From an uncultured Chloroflexia bacterium (GTDB taxonomy: Bacteria; Chloroflexota; Limnocylindria; Limnocylindrales; CSP1-4), in the NCBI GenBank assembly GCA_963819655.1, contig CAWFXA010000001.1, positions 327,155 through 391,154 on the forward strand: a DNA stretch of 64,000 nt, read 5' to 3'. The translations under genes were made by a program, and so were the position numbers. Shown one piece after another: positions 1,094 through 60,263 of this stretch. Under the pieces are notes generated by a model. The model saw only the letters and a program-made list of their open reading frames with translations, was not told where the DNA came from and searched no databases. Numbering within the stretch: the stretch's first letter is position 1; each line of letters opens with the position of its first letter.

Positions 1094-3340
1094 ATGCTGC
1101 GGGCCATGGAGCGCCCCGTCCGTCGCCGGCCCCACGCGGCCGGCCTCGCTTTTCTGGCCGTGCTCGGCCTGGCGTTGCCCAGCGCCGCCGCGGCCGCCGG
1201 CCCGCCGTTCCCCGATCCCGTCGACGGCCAGGCGGTCTACGACACGGCCGAGCTGTTCACACAGGAAACGCGCGAGCAGGCCGAGCTCATCATCGACGCG
1301 ATCGAGGCTCAGACGAAGGCCGAGGTCGTCGTCTACACGCAGGGTCTCGGCCGCGACGACATCACGACCGATGAGGCCGAATCAGACGCCGAGGCGCTCA
1401 TGGACCAATGGGGCGTCGGCCGGATCGGGCTGAATGACGGGCTGGTCATCCTGTTCGACCTCGACACCACCATGCGCCACGGGCAGGTCCAGCTGTATGC
1501 CGGCCCGGGCTTCTCGTCGTCGTACCTGTCGAACGAGGAGCGCCAGGCGATCTACGAGGGGACGATGCTCCCGCTCCTGGCTGACGGGAACTTCGACGAC
1601 GCGCTGCTCGCGGCTCTCGCGGAGGTCGTCAACGCGACGTTCGACGGGTCGCCGCCGGGGTCGCCTGAGCAGCCGAGCGGCCCGGTCATCGCCCCCGGGC
1701 CGCCGTTCCCGGAACCCGAGGTCGATCGCGCCGTGTACGACTTCGCCGGCATCCTGTCGGCCGACGCGATCGTCCGCGCCGAATCGACGATCGATGCCAT
1801 CGAGGCGCGGACCGCGGCCGAGATCGTCGTGTATACCGAGCTCGTCGACTACGGCGGGTCGCCGGGGGAGACCGAGTCCCGCGCGATCGCGCTGATCGAT
1901 CAATGGGGCGTCGGCCGGCAGGGCTTCGACGACGGCCTGGCGATCTTCTTCGACATCGATCCCTCGCTCGAGCACGGCCAGGTCCAGCTGTATGCCGCGC
2001 CCGGCTTCGAGGCGACCTATCTGTCGAACAGCGAGCGCCAGCGGATCTTCGAGGACGACATGGTCCCGCACCTTCGGGAGGCGGATTTTGACGGTGCGTT
2101 GGATGCCGCGATGGCCAAGATCGATGCCGTGGCCACGCCCGGGAACGCGGCACGCCTGCAGGCGGGTCGGCAGTTCAACGCGGTGCTGGGGCTGATCGGC
2201 GCACCGATCGTGTTGCTCGGGCTGGCGGGCTGGGCGTTCTTCTCCTGGCGGCGCTTCGGCAAGGACCCCGTGTACCTCGACGACCCGTCGATCCTGATGC
2301 CCGCTCCACCGCCCGACCTGACCGCCGCGTCCGGCGCGTTCGTGATGGACGGCGGCACATCCCGGCGCGCGCTCACGACCGCGATGCTCGACCTCGCGTC
2401 GCGTGGCCTCATCTCGTTCCGCGAGGACAAGGGTCTGCTCGGCCTGTCGCACAAGGTCGGCGTCGACACCGATCCCGAGCGAGGCGGCGACGTCGAGGAG
2501 GCGCAGCGGGCCCGTAACGCCCGCCGGCCCATCGGTCCCGCGGAGGACCACGCGCTCCGCCACCTCCGGAGCCTGGCCAAGGACGAGGGGTTCATCGAGC
2601 CCGACGAGCTCCCGTCGTTCGGGGCCTCGGTCAGCGACTTCGACAGGAAGCTCGAGGATCACGTCGTCCATGGCGGCTGGATGGTCGAGCAGCCGCGCAG
2701 GGTCATCGCGCGCTGGGTCGCCAAGGGGATCCTGGCGATCGCGGCCGGTGCGGTCGCGATCTTCCTCGGCGTCAACGTGCCGATCTCGGGGCTCGTGCTC
2801 ATTGGCGTGGCGGCCATCGCCGGCGGAGTGGTGATCATCGTTTTCGCGCGGAGCATGCCGACCGTGACGATGGCAGGGTCGATGATCCGGGCCATGCTGG
2901 CGGCCTACCGGCGGACGCTGCACAAGACGATGGAGCAGGCGCGCTCGATGCAGCAGGTCGTCGACCAGGCCGGTCTGACCTGGCTCGAGACGCCGGACCA
3001 GGCGGTCGTGTGGGGCACGGCGCTGGGGCTGCAGAACGACATCGAGGATGTGCTCAAGCGCTCGCTCGAGGACGTGCGCGAATCGCCGAACCTCGCGTCG
3101 TCGACGTATTTCCCGATCTGGTACAGCTCGTCCGACGGCTCGTCGGTCGCGAGTGGCATGGCGAGCAGCGGCGGGTCGATCTTCTCGGGATCGGCCGTGC
3201 CCGACCTCGGCGGGATGATGTCGGCGCTCGGCACCATCGGGAACTCCCCGTCGTCGTCGGGGGGTAGCGGCAGCGGTGGCGGCGGGTTCGGCGGCGGCTC
3301 CTCGGGCGGTGGCGGCGGAGGCGCCGGCGGCGGGTTCTAG
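1094..3340 (+). CDS. Secreted/membrane protein with two tandem TPM (TLP18.3/Psb32/MOLO-1) domains, a DUF2207-like transmembrane region and a Gly/Ser-rich C-terminal tail
   Basis: N-terminal signal peptide. An internally duplicated ~155-aa module (GPPFPDP...VVVYT...DQWGVGR...HGQVQLYAGPGF...YLSNEERQ versus GPPFPEP...IVVYT...DQWGVGRQ...HGQVQLYAAPGF...YLSNSERQ). Hydrophobic helices in the C-terminal half. The tail ends GGSGSGGGGFGGGSSGGGGGGAGGGF. Confidence 0.7.
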   Translation: MLRAMERPVRRRPHAAGLAFLAVLGLALPSAAAAAGPPFPDPVDGQAVYDTAELFTQETREQAELIIDAIEAQTKAEVVVYTQGLGRDDITTDEAESDAEALMDQWGVGRIGLNDGLVILFDLDTTMRHGQVQLYAGPGFSSSYLSNEERQAIYEGTMLPLLADGNFDDALLAALAEVVNATFDGSPPGSPEQPSGPVIAPGPPFPEPEVDRAVYDFAGILSADAIVRAESTIDAIEARTAAEIVVYTELVDYGGSPGETESRAIALIDQWGVGRQGFDDGLAIFFDIDPSLEHGQVQLYAAPGFEATYLSNSERQRIFEDDMVPHLREADFDGALDAAMAKIDAVATPGNAARLQAGRQFNAVLGLIGAPIVLLGLAGWAFFSWRRFGKDPVYLDDPSILMPAPPPDLTAASGAFVMDGGTSRRALTTAMLDLASRGLISFREDKGLLGLSHKVGVDTDPERGGDVEEAQRARNARRPIGPAEDHALRHLRSLAKDEGFIEPDELPSFGASVSDFDRKLEDHVVHGGWMVEQPRRVIARWVAKGILAIAAGAVAIFLGVNVPISGLVLIGVAAIAGGVVIIVFARSMPTVTMAGSMIRAMLAAYRRTLHKTMEQARSMQQVVDQAGLTWLETPDQAVVWGTALGLQNDIEDVLKRSLEDVRESPNLASSTYFPIWYSSSDGSSVASGMASSGGSIFSGSAVPDLGGMMSALGTIGNSPSSSGGSGSGGGGFGGGSSGGGGGGAGGGF

Positions 3341-4037
3341 GCTCCTGCTCCGGCCGCGCGCTCCGGCCGCGCTCGCAGGTCGCACTCGACCCGCGAATCA
3401 CCGCTGCCCGGTGCTATCGACCACGAAGACCCACTCAGTCCGCACGTTTACACCGCCCAACGACGAGATCGACCGCCGCCGAGGACCTCCGCCGTCGGAA
3501 TCACCGGCCGGCGGTGGATCTGCCGACGTGCTTCGCTGGTATCACCTCACAGCGGTGGTCCGCGTGCGGCAATGTCCCTCGCCGGGACTATGTCTGCTAC
3601 TCCTCGCGAACGGAGGAGTGACCTCCCGCAGGGACGCCTCGCAGTCGGCGACATCCTCTCGTGGGCACGACAGCCGTAGCGCCCACGGTCCCAGTTCCGT
3701 GGCGATGTAGTACTGCAGGTGGACGATGTCGTCGCCACCTGGCTCCGCGTTCATCATCTCCAGGCGGAGCGCTTCGCCGAGCTGAAGGTGGACGCGCCCA
3801 AGGGAGCGGATCCGCATCTCGGTCGCATTCGGATGGATGCCATATCGCCATCGGCTGAGCGGCGACGCAAGCGACTCGGTCTTCTCCGCCTCCCGTCCGA
3901 GGACCATACGCCGGGTCGCCAGCTTGGCAGGATCGATGTCACATCGGGCCGCCACCGACTCCGGCCCGCAGATGGAACGGTTCGAGGATGAGACTGCCCT
4001 AGTCTGTGAGCGCGGCGACAACCGTCGCGCCGCATGG

Positions 4038-4601
4038 ATGACGAGGATGGATCGAACACTCGTCGAACGGGCACGTCAGGGCGATCACGCCGCCTTCGCC
4101 ATCCTGGCGGAGTCGGCGACCGATCGGCTGTACGGCGTCGCGACGCTCATCCTTCGGGATCCTGACCGCGCCCAGGACGCGGTCCAGGAGGCGCTCATCT
4201 CCGCCTGGAGAGATGTGCGGGCCCTGCGGGATCCCGATGCGTGGGACGCGTGGATCCATCGACTCGTGGTCAGAGCGTGTTACCGAGAGGCCGACCGACA
4301 CCGTCGGCGGCGATTGATCGTCGACACGTTCGATCCGACCCCGCCGAGCATCGGCGATGCGTCGGCAGATCTCGCCGACCGCGACGAGATCGAGCGCGGC
4401 TTCCGACGGCTGACCGTCGAGCAGCGCGCGATCCTCGTATTGCACTTCCACGGCGGGCTATCGGCGGCCGAGACCGGCAACGTCCTTGGGATCCCCGAGG
4501 GCACGGCGAAGTCTCGGCTCAATCGGGCACTGCATGCGATGCGTGCGGCGCTCGAGGCCGACGCCCGATCCACTCAGCTCAATCCGGGGCGACTGGCATG
4601 A
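4038..4601 (+). CDS. ECF (sigma-70 family) RNA polymerase sigma factor
   Basis: Region 2 (DAVQEALISAWRDVRALRD) and region 4 (LTVEQRAILVLHFHGGLSAAETGNVLGIPEGTAKSRLNRA) are recognisable. Start taken at the internal ATG MTRMDRTLVERARQGD; the ORF upstream of that in the same frame looks non-coding. The stop overlaps the next gene's start (ATGA). Confidence 0.85.
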   Translation: MTRMDRTLVERARQGDHAAFAILAESATDRLYGVATLILRDPDRAQDAVQEALISAWRDVRALRDPDAWDAWIHRLVVRACYREADRHRRRRLIVDTFDPTPPSIGDASADLADRDEIERGFRRLTVEQRAILVLHFHGGLSAAETGNVLGIPEGTAKSRLNRALHAMRAALEADARSTQLNPGRLA

Positions 4602-5857
4602 ACGCGTCGCACGACATCGAACGAGACCTCGCACGGTGGATGGAGGCCGTCGCGCCGTCGCGGGCGCCCGACAACCTCGCGCCTGGGATCGTCGAACGAA
4701 CACGCTCGTTGCGGCCGCGTCCAGGTTGGCTCGCCCGCCTCATGGAGCCTCCGATGCAGACGCAACTTTCGTTGAGGAACTACTTTGGCTTCGGCCGATC
4801 CGCGCGGTTGATCCTCGTCGGCCTGCTGATCCTCGCCCTCACGGTCGGTGGGATCGTCGTGGGAAGCCAGCTCTTGCAGCAGCGACCCCTACCCCCTCCG
4901 TTCGGCCTCGCCGGCAATGGGTTGCTCGCAGCGAACGTCAACGGCGAGATCGTCCTCATGGAGCCTGACGGGTCGACCGCACAACCTCTCGTGCTGCCCT
5001 TCGAAGGCGTCACCGGGACCTCGTTCTCGCGCGACGGAACCAGGATCGCCGCGTGGGCGACTCCGGACACCGGTCGCGGGAGTCAGAAGTCGCTGATCGT
5101 CGCGAACGCAGATGGATCCGAGGCCTTCGAGGTCGACACTGCCAAGCTCGTCGGCGACCCTGGTTTTCGGATCGCCTGGTCACCGGACGATCGACGTCTG
5201 GCCTTCAGCGGGTCAGGCAATCGGCTGTACGTCGCCGACATCGACGCCCGAACGATCAGTGAACTCGGACCGGACGAGTCGATCAAGTTCCGCAAGGATC
5301 CCGCTTGGGCTCCGGACGGACGGCTCGCCTACCAATGCACGACCAGCGGCGTGCCGCACCTCTGCGTCATGAGTGCGGATTTTCAAGTCGAGCAGATGCT
5401 GCAGACGTCGGCCGGAACCGAGTTTGCGTTCCACGCCCCGTCGTGGTCACACGATGGCAGGTCGATCGCCTACCAGGTCGACGATACGATCGATCCCCAG
5501 CCTGGCGGCGGCTTCGGTTGGGACGTGGCCACGATCGACGTCGTCACCGGGAAAGAGAAGGTCCTCACGCGCGGCTTTGCGGACCACACCATCCTGCCGG
5601 TCTGGAGCCCGGACGACCGGCATCTGCTGTTCCTGACGGAAGGCGGTCCGGGTGTCGTGCGGTCCGACGGAACGGACCTGCGACTATTCGGGCAGACGGC
5701 GTGCCCATGGATCGAGCCGTCGCCCGATGGCGCATTTGCGACCTGCCCATCTGGCAACGAAGTCGTGCTGTACCCGATCGAGAGTGGCGGCCAGCCAACG
5801 GTCATCGAACTCGGAGGTCCGGTCGAATCCGTCAACTGGCAGCGCGTGGCCAACTGA
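4598..5857 (+). CDS. Anti-sigma factor: cytoplasmic N-domain, one TM helix, periplasmic TolB-like PD40 beta-propeller
   Basis: ATGA overlap with the upstream sigma gene. TM segment LILVGLLILALTVGGIVVG. Repeated W(S/A)PDxR(R/L)(L/A)(A/F) motifs (WSPDDRRLAF, WAPDGRLAY, WSHDGRSIAY, WSPDDRHLLF, PSPDGAFA). Confidence 0.75.
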   Translation: MNASHDIERDLARWMEAVAPSRAPDNLAPGIVERTRSLRPRPGWLARLMEPPMQTQLSLRNYFGFGRSARLILVGLLILALTVGGIVVGSQLLQQRPLPPPFGLAGNGLLAANVNGEIVLMEPDGSTAQPLVLPFEGVTGTSFSRDGTRIAAWATPDTGRGSQKSLIVANADGSEAFEVDTAKLVGDPGFRIAWSPDDRRLAFSGSGNRLYVADIDARTISELGPDESIKFRKDPAWAPDGRLAYQCTTSGVPHLCVMSADFQVEQMLQTSAGTEFAFHAPSWSHDGRSIAYQVDDTIDPQPGGGFGWDVATIDVVTGKEKVLTRGFADHTILPVWSPDDRHLLFLTEGGPGVVRSDGTDLRLFGQTACPWIEPSPDGAFATCPSGNEVVLYPIESGGQPTVIELGGPVESVNWQRVAN

Positions 5858-6566: not shown

Positions 6567-7853
6567 CTACGACGGCGAGGGCGACGCCTCGGCCGGGACC
6601 TCCTCGGTCACCGGCACCGGGATGATGATCTCGTCGCCGACCTTGATCCGGTTCGGGTTCGAGATGCGGTCCTTGTTGGCCTCCAGCAACGCGTCGAGCG
6701 TCACATTGAACTCGCGCGCGATCCGCGACAGCGTGTCACCCGCCTTGATGACATAGGTCTGCGGGGTCGGGTCCGGGATCGGGGTTGGCTCAGTCGACGG
6801 GGTCGCCACCGCGACGGACGGGCTCGCGCTGGACGCGCCGCCGCCACCATTCGGACCGCCGACGCCGAGCAATGCCGGCAGGAAGAACAGGATCAGCGCG
6901 GCAAGAACCACGCCGCCGAAGAGGATCCCCACGGTCGGGATCGCCGGGAGACCCGAGAGCCCGGCCCGCGTCTTGATCGACGGGTACGCCTCATTGCGAC
7001 GCTGGCGCTCCCAGAGCGGCCCATCGTTGTCGGCTCGATCGGCCGCTCGATCGCGAGTGCGACCGCCGTCGCGCGTCGAACTGACGGTCGGGCGCCGCGC
7101 CGGTCGCGTCGGCGGTCGCACGACCGGATGGGCTTCGTCCTCCTCGGCCTGGCGCGCTGTGCGCCCGACGAGCCCGGCCAGGTCCGGGTCGGCGGGGACG
7201 GCCGGGCTGTCCTGCGGGGGCGACGGTGGGCGCGGCGATGAGCGCTGGCCCCACTCATCTGTGACGGCACCGCCTAGCGCCAGCCGGTCCGCGGCGCTGC
7301 CGGCCAGGCCCTGTCCCTCTGCCGGGACGGGCTGTCGATCGGCAGCATCGTCGGGGCGCGGCCCTTCGCGCCGCGGCCCACCGCCGCCCGGGCCAGACGC
7401 CCACGGTGGCGGGGCGGCCCAGTCGCGGGGCGGATTGCGCCGAGGGGGATCCTCGAGCGGCGGTTCCGGCCTGGCCTGGCCCCAGAGATCGGCGTCGGCG
7501 TCGGCATCCCCGTCGTCGGCGGCGCTCAGGATCGCTCCGGCCGCGACCGCATCGGCAGGCCCCACATCAGCGAGCCCCGCCCCGTCGTCATCTGTAACCG
7601 CAGCGACGGCCGCGCCCGGGATGGCACGAGCGGCCTCCCGCCGCGCCCATTCCTGGAAGGTCGGGCAGACGGGGAACGCGGACGAGAGGCAGTACGCCTC
7701 CTGGTGGGCGAGGGCGCGCGGTGCCGGCTCCGTCTCGGCGAAGCACCGGTGGCGGTGATCCGGCCGATCGGCGCGCTCGTCGCGATCGTCCTCGAATGCG
7801 ACGAACGGGCAGGCCGATGAACCGTCCGCGCTGGGCAACCCTCGGTCCGTCAT
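6567..7853 (-). CDS. LysM peptidoglycan-binding domain membrane protein with an N-terminal Cys4 motif and a Pro/Ala-rich linker
   Basis: C-terminal LysM (YVIKAGDTLSRIAREFNVTLDALLEANKDRISNPNRIKVGDEIIIP). One TM helix (ILFGGVVLAALILFFLPALLGV). N-terminal CPF...HRC...C...CP. Start taken at MTDRGLPSADG. Confidence 0.7.
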   Translation of the reverse strand: MTDRGLPSADGSSACPFVAFEDDRDERADRPDHRHRCFAETEPAPRALAHQEAYCLSSAFPVCPTFQEWARREAARAIPGAAVAAVTDDDGAGLADVGPADAVAAGAILSAADDGDADADADLWGQARPEPPLEDPPRRNPPRDWAAPPPWASGPGGGGPRREGPRPDDAADRQPVPAEGQGLAGSAADRLALGGAVTDEWGQRSSPRPPSPPQDSPAVPADPDLAGLVGRTARQAEEDEAHPVVRPPTRPARRPTVSSTRDGGRTRDRAADRADNDGPLWERQRRNEAYPSIKTRAGLSGLPAIPTVGILFGGVVLAALILFFLPALLGVGGPNGGGGASSASPSVAVATPSTEPTPIPDPTPQTYVIKAGDTLSRIAREFNVTLDALLEANKDRISNPNRIKVGDEIIIPVPVTEEVPAEASPSPS

Positions 7854-8000
7854 CCGGTCGATGATACCCGCGGTGCTGCCGATGTTCCGGTGCGTCGACA
7901 CCCCAACCCTTCCGTGCCACCCCGCGAGAGGCGGTTGCCACGCAACACGTGGTAACCGGTCGTTGCCCGGGCAGAAATACGTCGCCAGCACGCTTGGTCA

Positions 8001-50957: not shown

Positions 50958-51239
50958 GGTCCTCGTCTCCGCACCTTCTATGGCGCTGCGGCTCAGGATT
51001 TCGTTCGATGTTCCTGACGACTCTGGTACGAAGATGACGTCGGGTCGGACGATTCCGTTGCAGCGCTAGAGCCCGTTGTCCGAAATCGGACATGCGACGG
51101 CACGCACGACCGAACCTGGACGTCCTGACCGGCATCAGATGATCGAACGCGCCGCAGGAGGGAGCCGATCTCACCCGCGACAGACCGATCGCTCGTCGAA
51201 CGGGCTCGCAACGGCGACCTCGACGCGTTCGAGGAGATC

Positions 51240-51719
51240 GTGCGTGTCCGGATGGATGGCGTATACCGACTGAGCGTCGCGATCCTCGGCGACGAGGCCG
51301 ATGCGCGCGATGCCGCCCAGGACACGTTCATCACGGCGTGGCGGCAGATCCGAGCCGTGCGCGATCCGGGCAAGTTCGACGCGTGGCTCCAGCGCGTGGC
51401 GGTCAACGCGGCGCGGATGACGCATCGCTCGCGGCGACGTCGTGGCGTCCGCGAGATCCCGCTAAGCCGGCTCGGAGAGGCGCCGACCTCCGGGCCGTCT
51501 GTCGAGCTGGCGGACACCGATGGCCGCGTGCTCGATACCGCGATGCGGGCCCTCGAGATCGACCAGCGATCGATCCTCGTCCTGCACCACCTCGAGGGCC
51601 GATCGATCGTTGAGCTGGCGGCGATCCTCGATGTCCCGACGGGGACCGTGAAGTCTCGTCTGCACGCCGCTCGGCGGGCGCTCCAAGCGGCGATCGACGC
51701 CGAAGCGATCGATCGATGA
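51240..51719 (+). CDS. ECF sigma factor, paralogue of the 4038-4601 gene; N-terminus unresolved
   Basis: Regions 2-4 are clear (DAAQDTFITAWRQIRAVRD; LHHLEGRSIVELAAILDVPTGTVKSRLHAAR). The conserved N-terminal LVERARNGDLDAFEEIV is encoded upstream of the first in-frame start codon. The only upstream ATG (51139) is in another frame. Confidence 0.75.
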   Translation: MRVRMDGVYRLSVAILGDEADARDAAQDTFITAWRQIRAVRDPGKFDAWLQRVAVNAARMTHRSRRRRGVREIPLSRLGEAPTSGPSVELADTDGRVLDTAMRALEIDQRSILVLHHLEGRSIVELAAILDVPTGTVKSRLHAARRALQAAIDAEAIDR

Positions 51720-54700
51720 CGTCTCCGATCGCTCCGCGCGAGCCTTGGGACGACCGACGGCTGGCGGCGGCGTTCACGGCCCGTGCCGCGAAGACCCGGA
51801 CGCCCAACGAGCTGGTCGGGGATGTCGTGGCGCGCGTGCGGACCGAGGATCCGCCGATGCCCGTGTGGCGCCGGTGGCTGCCAGCCGCCGCGGTCGTGGT
51901 CCTCGCGCTCGGCGTGGTCGCGGGTGGGGTCGCGTTGTCGGGCGACGTTCGCGGCCAAGGTCTGTTCCGAGAAGGCCCGAGGGCCGACCTGAAGACGCTC
52001 GCAACGGGCGAGTTCGCCTTCGATTATCCAGCCGCATGGCACGGATACGACGCGTCGGCTGCGGGCAGCGGAATCTCGTCGGTCGCCGTGCTTGGCACGC
52101 AATCGGTGGAGCGGCGCTGCGGCAACGAGCGGCATGTCGACCTCAACTGCGTCTACGAGCAACGCCTCGAGGCAGGGCAGATCCGTCTGTTCGTCGGGAC
52201 CGGCGCCTATCGAGGCCAGACGATCGAAGACCGGGCGCCCATCGAGAACGGGACTAGCTCTCGGGTCCGGGTGGGAGGCATGCCGGCCATCTTCGACGAG
52301 TTCGACGCTCGACCGGACTCCTTCTACGGTGAAGACACGCTGATCCATTGGGAGATCGCACAGCCCGGGTCGGCCGGCACGAACGTCGTCCGCCTCGAGG
52401 CGATGCTCAGAGAGCCTGGCGTCACTGAGGGCCGAAGGCAGCTCGAGGCGTTGGTCGCGAGCTTCCGCTTCACGAACGGCCCCGACCCGTCCCCGCCGCC
52501 GACACCCGAGCCGACGCCGACCGCGACTCCGCCACGCCTCGCCGACCTGCGAGTGATGACTGTGGAGGAGCTGATCACCGCCACGGAGTCGCCGACGCCG
52601 GAGGAGGTCATCGTCCGCGGCTGGCTGGGACGCTCGAATGCCATCTTCGACTGCAACATCGAACCCGACCCGCATCCGCTGATCCCGCGTTGCGAGGAAT
52701 TCGGCCTGTCCCTGTTTCAGGATCCGCCGTTCGTCGAGCGCGGAACCCTCGAGCCTAGCTTGCCTCATGTCGTGCCCATGCTGCGGATCGACGCCCACGC
52801 GGACGTACCAGCCATGCCGGGAATCGCTGTGGAGGTCTTGGCAGTGGGCCACCTCCTCGACCACCGCTGGACGACGTGTCCGGAGGCCCAGCAGGCCGAC
52901 TGCAAGGCGCGCTTCGTGATCGATCGGGTGGTCGCCGCCGACCAGCCATTGTGGGACGACCTTCCGACTCCGTGGGCGAGCCCGGATGGCTTGCCCGTGA
53001 GTGGGCCGTCCGAGGCGGTCGGGGTCCTGTCCTCCATCGTCGGTGGTGTGACTGTCGTGTCGATCGGCGTCGCCGACGCCGATGCTCTCCGATCGATCGA
53101 GTGGCAGACGCGCGCCAAGCCGGATCTGCAGACGTCGTGGGTGATCCGCGCCCTCATCGGAAGGGACGCCGAGCCGATCGCGCGAACGTTCCTGGTCGGC
53201 GACGAGGGCCACTCGACGGTGCTCGAGGTGACCGAGACGGGCCTCGTCGACTTGATCGGCCAGCCCGCGTCCGCCCCGCCGACCGAGGTGCTCGGCCTCC
53301 CGGTCATCTCCGTCGAGGAGGCGATCGCGATCCGCGATGCCGGCCGCGACGACCGCGAGATCGCGGTCCGTGGCTGGTTCCCGCCGTCGAGGTCACTCCG
53401 CTGCGCCTACCCAAGCCCCCCGATCACGTTCTTCCTAGAGCCGTATTGCCAGGACGGATTCTCGGTGCTCATGGCAGGTCCGGAGACCTTGGCCACCGGC
53501 CTGCCTGGAGGACCCCATATATCGGTGGACCTCCATGACCTTGAAATGGCCTGGTATCCCACGGCCGACTCAGTCGAAATGGTGGCGATCGGCCACTTCG
53601 ACGACCGGCGCTCGAACTGGTGTGATGCGTCTCGGGTCGACGCGTGTCGTGACCGCTTGGTCGTCGATCAGGTCGCGTGGGCGGCGGGCGCGGCGCAGCC
53701 GCTGAGCGTCGTCATGAGGACAGGGACGGGCGATCCGGCGTTTGGTCCCGTCGACGCCGCGATCACCGCCACGACTGAGGCCGCGATCCTGTCATCGGCT
53801 GCGTATCGAGCGTGGGAACTCATGGAGATCGAGCCGTCCTTGCGCGATGGGCGGCCCGGCATCACCGACGAGCCGATCCTGTGGAGCGTTCAGGTCCTGG
53901 AGGACGAGCGCGCCGCTACCTACGTCGTGGTCGATGGAACCGATCGGGTCTATCGCGTGGAGACGGACGGACAGACGGTCCAAGTCGGTGGCACGCCGCT
54001 CGAAGATCCGGCGCGCTCGTGGCCGCCAGAGGGTGTCCTGGACGTGCCGATGCCGGAAGGTGGTACGGGCCTCACACCCAAGGCTGGCGTCATCGACCGG
54101 AGCGGGTTGCTCGTGGAGGCACGAGCCGCAGGCGAGGCAGATCCGGGTCGGCCCATCACCGAGCTGGACCCCGGGGAGATGGCGATCGTGCAGGCGGCGC
54201 CGGATACGGTCGTCGCCTACTGGAACGGCTCGCTGTGCGACGATCGGTTCGTCCTGACCCTTTACGGTCGCGGTCCATCCGAGGCGCCCGATCGACTCGA
54301 GTTGCGCGGCGAGCGCGCCGATCTGTGCCGCCTGGCCCTCGTCCGCTACGGGATCCGGCTCCGCTTCAGCCAGCCAGTCGACGCGGCCTCCATCCGCGGC
54401 TGGGACCGTGTCGGCACACCGTTCGAGGCATTCCCGCCCGTCGACTCCACGGTCGTCTTCCTCCCGAAGGACGGCGGGTTCGAGCTTCCCAAGGTACGTG
54501 CGGCGCTGATCGACCTGAGCGGCCGGGTCACTGCCGTGCGTGCGATCGGGCCAGATGACCCGAGAGTGCTGGACCTCGAAGCCCAAGGGAAGGTCGTCTG
54601 GATTCGTGACCGGCAGCTCGTCGGGCGCTACCACCTCTACTGGACCGGCGGCATCTGCGACGGCGACTCGGTGGTGACGATCGACGCGACGTTGTCGACG

Positions 54701-54838
54701 GTCAGCGTCCACGCGACGCGGCAGGAGCCGTGTGATCTCACGGGCGTTGAGCGCCGCTTGGTGATCGACGTCGACGGCGCCCTGGACCCCAACGCCATCG
54801 AGACGATCTATACCGAGACCGTCACCGGCGCCTCATAA
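51716..54838 (+). CDS. Anti-sigma factor (1040 aa): N-terminal anti-sigma domain, one TM helix, large Cys-containing repeat ectodomain
   Basis: ATGA overlap with the sigma gene. The N-terminal 55 aa are paralogous to the anti-sigma at 4598. TM helix LPAAAVVVLALGVVAGGVAL. Internal ~130-aa repeat (aa ~276-410 versus ~524-655). Confidence 0.7.
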   Translation: MTSPIAPREPWDDRRLAAAFTARAAKTRTPNELVGDVVARVRTEDPPMPVWRRWLPAAAVVVLALGVVAGGVALSGDVRGQGLFREGPRADLKTLATGEFAFDYPAAWHGYDASAAGSGISSVAVLGTQSVERRCGNERHVDLNCVYEQRLEAGQIRLFVGTGAYRGQTIEDRAPIENGTSSRVRVGGMPAIFDEFDARPDSFYGEDTLIHWEIAQPGSAGTNVVRLEAMLREPGVTEGRRQLEALVASFRFTNGPDPSPPPTPEPTPTATPPRLADLRVMTVEELITATESPTPEEVIVRGWLGRSNAIFDCNIEPDPHPLIPRCEEFGLSLFQDPPFVERGTLEPSLPHVVPMLRIDAHADVPAMPGIAVEVLAVGHLLDHRWTTCPEAQQADCKARFVIDRVVAADQPLWDDLPTPWASPDGLPVSGPSEAVGVLSSIVGGVTVVSIGVADADALRSIEWQTRAKPDLQTSWVIRALIGRDAEPIARTFLVGDEGHSTVLEVTETGLVDLIGQPASAPPTEVLGLPVISVEEAIAIRDAGRDDREIAVRGWFPPSRSLRCAYPSPPITFFLEPYCQDGFSVLMAGPETLATGLPGGPHISVDLHDLEMAWYPTADSVEMVAIGHFDDRRSNWCDASRVDACRDRLVVDQVAWAAGAAQPLSVVMRTGTGDPAFGPVDAAITATTEAAILSSAAYRAWELMEIEPSLRDGRPGITDEPILWSVQVLEDERAATYVVVDGTDRVYRVETDGQTVQVGGTPLEDPARSWPPEGVLDVPMPEGGTGLTPKAGVIDRSGLLVEARAAGEADPGRPITELDPGEMAIVQAAPDTVVAYWNGSLCDDRFVLTLYGRGPSEAPDRLELRGERADLCRLALVRYGIRLRFSQPVDAASIRGWDRVGTPFEAFPPVDSTVVFLPKDGGFELPKVRAALIDLSGRVTAVRAIGPDDPRVLDLEAQGKVVWIRDRQLVGRYHLYWTGGICDGDSVVTIDATLSTVSVHATRQEPCDLTGVERRLVIDVDGALDPNAIETIYTETVTGAS

Positions 54839-58526: not shown

Positions 58527-60263
58527 TCAGCGGATGACCACCAACTGGGAGCCCGGACCGCTCTCGGCGACGCCGACGCCGTCGTCCGACCATGCGGCGA
58601 TCTGGATGCGGCTGCCCTCTCCACTTTCGCCCGGTGGCGTGGCCCACGCGAGCCGGCCCGCGCCCATCGAGAAGCCAGGCAGCGCCGATTCCCGGGTCGG
58701 CGCGCCGTCGGCGCGTTCGAGGCGGACGTTGGCCTGATCCACGCGATACAGCGTCAGCTGGCCGACCTGCGAGTCCGGCGTCTCGGCGACCCAGACCGCG
58801 ACCCATTCGCCGGCTTCGTCCCAGCGAACGTCGAAATCGCCGGCGGCCTCATCGGCCGCGAGCCGGGATGCCTTCGATCCGATCGCGTCGAGCGGACCGT
58901 CGTCTCTCCAGCGTCGGAGCTCAAGACTCCCGCGTGCCGGCATCCATGTCCCATCGGCATCGGAACGGGCAAGCGAGCCATCCCATGCGATCGCGAAGCG
59001 GCCGGTCGGGTCGACCACGGGCCGCCACAGGTCGCCCGCATCGGCCTCGGCGTGCGTCGCCGGATCGATCATGACGGAGACCGGGCGTGCATCATCGGAC
59101 CCGGGCTGGCTCGGCCGGCTGGCGATGATCTCGTTGCCGGACCACGACGCGAAGTACGACGCGCCGTCGTTCGTGACCTTCGCCGCCTGCTCGTCGCCGA
59201 CGCGCCAGACATGGACGTCCGGACCACCGGAGCCGTCGGCCGGGCGCGCCGTGAACGCGAACCAGGTCCCATCCGGCGAATACGCGGCCGACTCGCCCAC
59301 GACGTCGATGCCGCTCGCGATCGCCACCTTCGCGGCGACGGTCGGTTCGGGTGACACCGTCGGGCTGGCGGATGGCTCGACCGATGGTTCGGTCGCGGCG
59401 CTCCGCGTGGGCGCGAGCGAAGCGGTCGCGCTCGACGGACTGGGCGTCTCCGGCGCGGGCGTCTTGCTCGGTGGGGAAGCAGCCGCTGACGGCTCATCGG
59501 TGCCTTCCGGCATCGTGACGACGACGACCTCGTCGCCCGTGGTCTCGGACTTTGCGATCGCGATGGCCTGACGACGCGTCGGCGACCCGACGATCGTCTT
59601 CGTCGCCCGGTTGAAGGCCACGGCATGGTCCTGGCTCGCGAGCAGCGGCGGACAATCGGCGGCGCCCTTGACCGGGCACACCTCGTCCACCGTCGCGGTG
59701 TGGTGGCCGCCCTCGGGCCCCTGATCGATCCACCCCACGGGACCAACGCTCCCGACCGCGAACGGTGTGGGTTCCACAGCTGCCGATCCGGGCGTCGCGC
59801 TGGCCAACGACGGGCCGTCGCCCGCCGGATCCTCACCCTTCACGCCACTGCCGGTATCCGGATAGATCGAGATGCTCCCCGACAGCAGGCTGACGCCCAC
59901 GACGAGTGCGACGACCGTCAGCCCCGACAAGGCCCCGATCGGCAGCGCACCCAGGCGCCCACGCCGAAAGCGGGCCCGAGAGGCGACAGGTGACTCGGCC
60001 TCGATCGCCGCCGCGGTCCGCGCCCACAGGTCGCGCGGCGGGTCCGGTCGTTCGTCGCGCAGAGAGCGCAGCGCGAGCCGGTCGTCCTCGTATCCCGTGG
60101 CGATCGCCGCACACGCCGGACAACCTGCGACGTGCTCGTCGAGCCAGCTCGACTCCGCGAGCCCGAGGGGGCCGTCAAGCCGTTCGGCGAGCCGCATCCT
60201 GGCGTGGGCATGGGGGTCGGACCACTGATCCTGGCGGCGACGGAGACGCGGGAAGCGGCTCAT
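58527..60263 (-). CDS. Zinc-binding (ZAS-type HxxxCxxC) anti-sigma factor with a TM helix and a large extracytoplasmic PD40-like domain
   Basis: EHVAGCPACAAI motif. TM helix LSGLTVVALVVGVSLL. Pro/Ser/Thr-rich linker. C-terminal YSPDGTWFAF-type repeats. The start overlaps the sigma stop (ATGA). Confidence 0.7.
   Translation of the reverse strand: MSRFPRLRRRQDQWSDPHAHARMRLAERLDGPLGLAESSWLDEHVAGCPACAAIATGYEDDRLALRSLRDERPDPPRDLWARTAAAIEAESPVASRARFRRGRLGALPIGALSGLTVVALVVGVSLLSGSISIYPDTGSGVKGEDPAGDGPSLASATPGSAAVEPTPFAVGSVGPVGWIDQGPEGGHHTATVDEVCPVKGAADCPPLLASQDHAVAFNRATKTIVGSPTRRQAIAIAKSETTGDEVVVVTMPEGTDEPSAAASPPSKTPAPETPSPSSATASLAPTRSAATEPSVEPSASPTVSPEPTVAAKVAIASGIDVVGESAAYSPDGTWFAFTARPADGSGGPDVHVWRVGDEQAAKVTNDGASYFASWSGNEIIASRPSQPGSDDARPVSVMIDPATHAEADAGDLWRPVVDPTGRFAIAWDGSLARSDADGTWMPARGSLELRRWRDDGPLDAIGSKASRLAADEAAGDFDVRWDEAGEWVAVWVAETPDSQVGQLTLYRVDQANVRLERADGAPTRESALPGFSMGAGRLAWATPPGESGEGSRIQIAAWSDDGVGVAESGPGSQLVVIR

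Follow-up and report, generated by a model that had tools for sequence, protein, structure and literature searches.

Two probably independent ECF sigma/anti-sigma modules of one common design, one with a candidate AUC start codon, in a Limnocylindria-type Chloroflexota contig

When two regulatory modules of the same design lie within one stretch of a genome, are they duplicates that feed a common output, or separate channels with a distant common origin? This question is raised by a 64-kb stretch of DNA (64,000 nucleotides (nt), G+C content 69%; contig CAWFXA010000001.1, positions 327,155 to 391,154 of the forward strand) from an uncultured Chloroflexia bacterium, the whole of which is called the window here and whose closest named relatives are Candidatus Limnocylindrales of the Chloroflexota (P0013, 89% identity). 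On its plus strand, genes for two extracytoplasmic function (ECF) sigma factors, sigma1 (4038/4047..4601) and sigma2 (51168..51719; 183 amino acids (aa) when counted from an ATC codon at 51168), are each followed by a gene for a putative anti-sigma factor, as1 (4598..5857, 419 aa) and as2 (51716..54838, 1040 aa), respectively. In the original prediction, both modules were read as products of one duplication followed by an exchange of the sensor domain, thereby giving two inputs into similar regulons. We consider it probable that they are separate signalling modules and serve as independent channels, having diverged anciently within one ECF sigma/anti-sigma design which is frequent in Limnocylindria-type Chloroflexota.

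Both sigma factors show the domain content of ECF proteins. Sigma1 (184 aa) matches Pfam Sigma70_r2, r4 and r4_2, sigma2 (~183 aa) matches r2 and r4_2, and neither has an r3 or r1 match; with 61.6 and 77.8 bits, respectively, both pass the cutoff of TIGR02937 (sigma70-ECF, 42.9 bits). The NCBIfam cutoff of a named ECF equivalog (SigE-fam_strep, SigM, SigW, RpoE etc.) was reached by neither protein; the best of these models was TIGR02983 with 111 and 108 bits against a cutoff of 141.55, and all others lay far below their cutoffs. As predicted, the two proteins align end-to-end by BLASTP (72 of 177 residues identical, 41%, E 2e-34), the identity in the MAFFT alignment of the family being 39%, and both have a similar loop, RDPxx(W/F)DAW, and a similar helix, GT(A/V)KSRL. 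Since a third ECF sigma factor of the window (sigma3), which served as an in-window comparator and is regarded as unrelated, is 26% identical to sigma1 and sigma2 (phmmer E ~1e-13), these two resemble each other more than two arbitrarily chosen ECFs would, although their identity is only marginally above that found with certain ECFs from outside the group (L108, 37%).

For sigma1, ATG 4047 is the likely start codon, because most homologues comprise 184 aa and begin with MDRTLVERAR; ATG 4038 is a possible alternative. Some databases call sigma1 orthologues at 209 aa from an ATG further upstream (3972). This call is probably wrong, because ATG 3972 abuts a conserved promoter-like GGAAC (3974-3978), lying just upstream of it.

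The end-to-end alignment and the common loop and helix would suit the duplication of one module, but the relatives of the two sigma factors argue against it. More than 120 database clusters are nearer to sigma1 (57-98% identity) than sigma2 is. Sigma1 has an orthogroup of its own (65-98% identity) with PD40 partners; in the three gene contexts that were examined, at orthologues with 84%, 74% and 65% identity, a PD40/Tricorn-type protein with an as1-type N-terminus is encoded as the partner. Sigma2 belongs to its own orthogroup of about 25 loci with 60-86% identity (22 from a metagenome scan and 3 from contig look-ups), beyond which the identity falls to 40% or less. In long contigs these loci lie between a gene for a DAO-family oxidoreductase and pyrC/pyrB/pyrR, and without exception the partner is a homologue of as2. 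Both orthogroups, together with their partners, are older than the species divergence. In a comparison set of 183 related sigma factors, sigma1 ranked 43rd among the neighbours of sigma2 (ranks of the pair 43rd and 51st), other members of the sigma1 clade (45%) being nearer to sigma2 than sigma1 itself. A neighbour-joining tree placed both proteins in one largely Chloroflexota assemblage, but in different deep clades; the sigma2 core had 98% bootstrap support, while any grouping uniting both clades reached 16-26%. Neither protein is the closest relative of the other, and they do not form a supported sister pair.

What did stand of the predicted sensor swapping is its occurrence at the scale of the family. 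The ectodomains of 25 family partners comprise seven PD40 and three BNR/Ycf48-like domains as well as single cases of beta-helix/NosD, SecDF-P1, DUF4232, F5/8-C and others. Sensor shuffling, in which a short N-terminus and a transmembrane (TM) helix are joined to diverse ectodomains, is therefore real in this family. Because of the separate orthogroups, the more than 120 closer clusters, the low bootstrap values and the wider distribution of the anti-sigma domain type described below, the pair is fairly described as ancient paralogues at the level of a family in which sensors were exchanged repeatedly, and not as a duplication linking the positions 4.0 kb and 51.2 kb. A single duplicated module with a swapped sensor and similar regulons is thus an unlikely explanation of the pair. 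Several other Chloroflexota loci (L001, L006, L017, L019 and L022) contain two such modules in a stretch of a few kb, both from this family, which suggests local tandem expansion of modules. In some long-read contigs of metagenome-assembled genomes (L083/P0151, L164, L165), the anti-sigma gene or neighbouring genes have been called as fragments or as fusions, which looks like the result of indel errors; in P0151 (L083), a different sigma-like N-terminus runs into an as2-like body.

The partner genes share position, coupling and N-terminal architecture. The predicted ATGA overlaps of sigma and partner genes are seen directly in the sequence at 4598-4601 and 51716-51719, and a 4-nt overlap with a partner in the +1 position is a nearly universal rule among the family loci. 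A common N-terminal anti-sigma domain, also predicted, escapes BLASTP, by which as1 and as2 show no similarity, and becomes visible with profiles built from partners at related loci and from as2 homologues. In hhalign, residues 8-45 of as1 (4619-4732) match residues 13-52 of as2 with a probability of 91%, an E value of 1e-6 and a score of 32.6. Because 60 column shuffles scored far lower (7.9 +/- 1.7, maximum 12.8; reversed alignment 8.5), a pure composition effect is excluded. This score is the highest among all pairs tested, which would again be in line with a duplication, but the profiles also match those of other Chloroflexota ECF partners (29.5) and of partners from Actinomycetota and Dormibacterota (24.5-25.5), all of these cross-group scores being well over the shuffle ceiling. 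The common pattern reads (W/F)-(D/E)-x-x-L-x3-(F/L)-x3-A-x4-P-x2-L-x3-(T/V)-x2-R, followed by a basic stretch, a W and the TM helix. Searched against a set of 5.8 billion proteins, the N-terminal profile gave 13 matches, which were short and mostly truncated proteins. The single TM helix expected in each partner was found at residues ~71-93 of as1 (4808-4876, read off the sequence) and at residues 55-73 of as2 (51878-51934) in an AlphaFold2 (AF2) model. This model (mean predicted local distance difference test (pLDDT) 82) further contains two N-terminal helices (residues 13-26 and 31-43; 13-43 corresponding to 51752-51844) and seven extracytoplasmic domains. In the segment that links its N-terminal helices to its TM helix, as1 carries the juxtamembrane motif W-L-x-x-L-(K/M)-E-P-P-M-(R/Q)-T (aa 44-56, 4727-4765), which is kept in a subset of partners, namely as1, its orthologues in L164/L165, and L004, L006 and L022. 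No database record of the exact as1 protein was found.

As to the type of anti-sigma domain, the cytoplasmic segments of as1 and as2 (45-65 aa) have neither an HxxxCxxC nor any other Cys or His motif, and Pfam zf-HC2, RskA and RseA gave no match at E <= 0.1, so that no class I domain was recognised. Class II domains are defined by two helices and a length under 50 aa (PMC7406223); as2 has two helices within fewer than 50 aa directly before the TM helix in its AF2 model, although with a pLDDT of 62-67 there. In the class II protein CnrY, helix 1 touches the σ4 domain and helix 2 the σ2 domain of its sigma factor, according to Maillard 2014 as cited in PMC7406223. Profile searches returned no match of the N-terminal domain in Pfam or in any PDB sequence, CnrY included; we therefore claim that the as1 and as2 N-termini may work like class II domains, not that they are members of this class.

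Alternatively, the downstream proteins could be co-transcribed envelope proteins or targets of the sigma factors, their N-terminal likeness being that of a generic signal-anchor. Such a reading could draw on the fact that neither N-terminus has an anti-sigma match in Pfam, NCBIfam or PDB and that the domain is short and Ala/Arg-rich. However, the missing matches are common, since most putative anti-sigma factors in the +1 position have no Pfam anti-sigma domain (PMC7826278, the ECF re-classification), the composition effect is excluded by the column shuffles, the overlapping +1 position is nearly universal, and the cytoplasmic segment is conserved despite unrelated ectodomains. We regard this alternative as improbable, even slightly more so than the duplication, and retain as1 and as2 as putative anti-sigma factors.

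The predicted lack of relation between the two ectodomains was borne out. In as1, residues ~100-419 form a PD40 beta-propeller (Pfam E 2.6e-14, over ~325 aa), although not a TolB protein: TIGR02800 gave 59.3 bits against a cutoff of 343 and covered residues 159-301 only. The ectodomain of as2 (~960 aa with 14 Cys) consists of PsbP-like and Cys-containing repeat domains and has no Pfam or NCBIfam match. Its membrane-proximal domain D1 (aa 84-250, followed by a Pro-rich linker; model pLDDT ~90) has the PsbP/Mog1 fold according to Foldseek (2lnj E 3.6e-5, 2xb3 E 2.5e-4; target-normalised template modelling score 0.58-0.60 over ~185 columns). The domains that follow are A1 (aa 279-410), B1 (420-512), A2 (528-660), B2 (664-760), C1 (775-900) and C2 (910-1037). 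BLASTP of as2 against itself detected no repeats; Smith-Waterman alignments with shuffles supported A1/A2 (z = 15.7) and C1/C2 (z = 9.1), and the same targeted alignments did not detect the B repeats. Four Cys are conserved in every A domain, which also has the motif GHFDDRR...C...CR..FV(V/I)D.

None of the A, B and C domains has a PDB match. Modelled alone, the A-B unit reached a pLDDT of 91 and a predicted template modelling score of 0.89, and no significant fold match was found for it in the PDB (best E 0.32, weakly similar to an oligonucleotide/oligosaccharide-binding fold). Full-length as2 has 37 homologues among 5.8 billion proteins, while 81 of 1.84 billion representative clusters contain the A-B unit, with one to three copies each. 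Eleven of these representatives were read; ten have an intact N-terminus, all with WDDxRLxAAF and a TM helix, and one is N-terminally truncated. As a sensor module, the A-B unit seems to be confined to this anti-sigma family.

With regard to the predicted similar regulons, candidates for autoregulated promoters were found by conservation upstream of both operons. For module 1 (3974..4003, plus strand), GGAAC at 3974-3978 would be the -35 and CTAGT at 3999-4003 the -10-like element; sigma1 orthologues and relatives have GGAAC/GCAAC and, after ~20-21 nt, CTAG/CTAT, CGTA or CATA. The window contains this pattern a single time, with 0.06 occurrences expected. For module 2 (51112..51136, plus strand), the corresponding elements would be GAACC at 51112-51116 and GGCATC at 51131-51136; in 25 leaders of sigma2 orthologues, the blocks TGAACC and CGGCATCA (in the window GAACC and GGCATC) are nearly invariant, and this pattern also occurs once in the window. 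The GAAC common to both -35 elements would agree with a duplication. However, GAAC at -35 is generic for ECFs, whereas the -10-like elements (CTAGT or CGTA/CATA in the sigma1 type, GGCATC in sigma2) and the spacing (~20-21 nt versus ~15-17 nt) differ, and each motif is found in the 64 kb at its own operon only. Since the shared part is this generic GAAC only, the proposed similarity of the regulons found no support within the 64 kb, which is too short a stretch to exclude a common regulon.

Regarding further leader elements, RNAalifold of 18 sigma1-type leaders yielded a small GC-rich hairpin after the promoter-like motif (4010..4030, plus strand) with seven pairs, five of them with compensatory changes, but its energy is weak (-6.7 kcal/mol). 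Neither of the two leaders is matched by an Rfam family. The sigma2 leader contains, between the -10-like block and the ribosome binding site (51137-51151), an invariant CGAACG block and a triplet that is ATG, GTG, TTG or ATA across the orthologues (ATG 51139 in the window, in the +1 frame). They may indicate where transcription starts, or a very small open reading frame upstream.

The start codon of sigma2 sets this module apart. The reading frame (51129..51719) opens after TGA 51126-51128 and contains no ATG, GTG or TTG before GTG 51240, the first GTG of the frame. This GTG had been taken as the position of sigma2 in the original prediction, which cannot be kept, as the peptide quoted there, DRSLVERARNGDLDAF, already starts at 51183. 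Gene callers give sigma2 orthologues as truncated proteins of 155-161 aa. To locate the start, leaders of 25 orthologous loci, 23 of them distinct, were compared. In the region 51183-51251, which encodes the first sigma2 helix, the variability at codon positions 1, 2 and 3 was 0.032, 0.023 and 0.161 (23 distinct leaders). Because variation concentrates at the third position, the region upstream of GTG 51240 is by this codon pattern clearly coding and under constraint. GTG 51240 itself varies like an ordinary Val codon (GTG/GTT/GTC/GCG). The codon matching the ATG of sigma1 is ACA, ACC or ACT in 16 leaders, ATC, CTC, CCC or ATT in six and ATG in one. Twelve nt upstream of it, ATC 51168 is invariant in all 23 distinct leaders, GGAG(G) stands 6-7 nt upstream of this ATC in 25 of 25 loci, and in 22 of 25 there is no canonical in-frame alternative upstream of the coding signal. 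In the window, the Shine-Dalgarno sequence AGGAGGG (51156-51162) is separated by 5-6 nt from the proposed non-canonical start ATC 51168-51170. The same arrangement is present in the more distant L027 (57% identity), while the outlier L021 has a normal ATG. Translation of sigma2 from the conserved AUC at 51168 is the best reading of these comparisons, and we hold it to be somewhat probable.

Two technical or mechanistic explanations of the missing start were rejected. A programmed frameshift from ATG 51139 (+1) into the sigma2 frame does not fit the variation of this triplet and the indels between it and the Shine-Dalgarno sequence, which are not multiples of three; an assembly error does not fit the same leader in 25 independent contigs. 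It could also be argued that sigma2 is a decaying gene without a start codon, or is naturally truncated, starting at GTG 51240 or ATG 51252 without region 2.1. The lack of a canonical start upstream of 51240, the short gene calls and the presence of ATG 51252 in 21 of 23 leaders are in line with this, and ECF groups without σ2.1 have been reported (ECF219, PMC7826278). Yet the codon-position pattern indicates purifying selection upstream of 51240, position 51240 behaves as a Val codon, the Shine-Dalgarno sequence and ATC do not vary among 25 independent assemblies, and the full-length frame is conserved together with its partner. Decay or truncation is therefore the least likely of the explanations considered here, and the AUC start is retained.

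Several points weigh against our interpretation. In E. coli, initiation at AUC reaches about 0.02-3% of that at AUG (bioRxiv 10.1101/063800). The N-terminal helices of as2 were modelled with low confidence, their domain has no relative in Pfam or PDB, and that they hold the cognate sigma factor is what we infer from the architecture. The promoter function of both motifs is likewise a proposal drawn from conservation, and the GAAC-to-CTAG distance of the sigma1 type (~20 nt) exceeds that of textbook ECF promoters. Moreover, the deep branching that relates the sigma1 and sigma2 clades is weakly supported.

Taken together, the following mechanism is proposed. The sigma gene and the downstream gene of either module would probably be co-transcribed from an autoregulated GAAC-type promoter and probably be translationally coupled via ATGA. 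The downstream product would be the cognate single-pass anti-sigma factor, whose two-helix cytoplasmic N-terminus of ~40 aa may keep the sigma factor inactive in a class II (CnrY-like) manner and whose TM helix would connect it to the extracytoplasmic sensor, i.e. the PD40 propeller in module 1 and the PsbP-like, two A-B and two C domains with their Cys in module 2. From general knowledge of ECF systems, the sigma factor would be set free by proteolysis or conformational change once the sensor receives a signal, and the freed sigma factor would transcribe its own operon and further targets. With their own promoters, the modules would act as independent channels and not as a recent duplicate pair. 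In module 2, the AUC start behind a strong Shine-Dalgarno sequence would lead to low basal sigma2 synthesis.

Module 1 is flanked by two genes for envelope proteins. The product of 1094-3340 (plus strand) has 748 aa, with two TPM domains, a C-terminal membrane domain of the DUF2207 type and a tail rich in Gly and Ser; that of 6567-7991 (minus strand) has 474 aa, is Pro/Ala-rich and contains one TM helix and, at its C-terminus, a LysM domain. Either could be an envelope-related target. The third ECF module lies on the minus strand, with sigma3 at 60260..about 60859 (Pfam r2/r4_2) and, ATGA-coupled to it, a zinc-type anti-sigma factor at 58527..60263 (578 aa, zf-HC2 with HxxxCxxC). The syntenic locus L081 has the same third-module arrangement downstream of its pyr genes.

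The two modules belong to the known ECF sigma/anti-sigma kind, and their interest is somewhat raised by the probable AUC start and the unmatched sensor domain. They illustrate, in the little-studied soil lineage Limnocylindria, the familiar rule that ECF families expand with their cytoplasmic interface kept and their extracytoplasmic sensors exchanged. For annotation, the short two-helix N-terminus marks many 'hypothetical' membrane proteins as probable anti-sigma factors, and sigma2 orthologues turn out to be systematically mis-called as truncated. Sigma2 offers comparative evidence that a regulatory gene may naturally use AUC as its start codon; if true, the output of sigma2, and through ATGA coupling that of its anti-sigma factor, would be set by initiation fidelity and not by transcription alone. 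The A-B unit adds a confidently modelled sensor domain without a PDB relative. That an AUC-started sigma2 lineage goes along with a partner bearing a previously undescribed, disulfide-capable A-B sensor which has no relative of solved structure and occurs almost only in this anti-sigma family is a plausible combined statement, which we put forward tentatively as falling a little short of probable.

Among known systems, the closest comparison for the sigma factors is ECF group 4 with a co-transcribed single-pass anti-sigma factor (SigE/SigM-type, actinobacterial; models TIGR02983 and NF007225). Both sides have σ2 and σ4 domains in ~184 aa, a +1 anti-sigma gene with stop/start overlap, one TM helix and a GAAC-type -35 upstream; sigma1 and sigma2 differ in scoring below every equivalog or subfamily cutoff and in forming a clade that is essentially restricted to Chloroflexota/Limnocylindria. 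The class I zinc-binding anti-sigma factors (RsrA, RslA, ChrR; Pfam zf-HC2) have the same job and gene position, but as1 and as2 lack HxxxCxxC and their N-terminal domain is about half as long as the four-helix anti-sigma domain of ~80-100 aa. With the class II protein CnrY of Cupriavidus metallidurans they share a cytoplasmic domain of less than 50 aa with two predicted helices before the TM helix, without detectable sequence similarity; CnrY has 95 aa and works together with CnrX, while as1 and as2 carry their own ectodomains of 325-960 aa. As regards the sensors, as1 resembles TolB/PD40 propellers in its PD40 repeats and its partial alignment to the TolB propeller model, but it lacks the N-terminal, TolA-binding domain of TolB and is fused to an anti-sigma TM anchor. 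D1 of as2 shares the fold of the PsbP/Mog1p-type proteins (CyanoP 2lnj/2xb3, M. tuberculosis MTC28 and LpqN, and Tsi3; E 3.6e-5 to 2.5e-4) at 10-14% sequence identity, here as the membrane-proximal domain of an anti-sigma factor. Finally, the confirmed AUH starts of E. coli are AUU only, in infC and pcnB (bioRxiv 10.1101/063800). The proposed sigma2 start is like them in being a near-cognate AUH codon with a good Shine-Dalgarno sequence, conserved across species and located in a regulatory gene, and differs in being AUC instead of AUU and in being known from the sequence of an uncultured Chloroflexota lineage.

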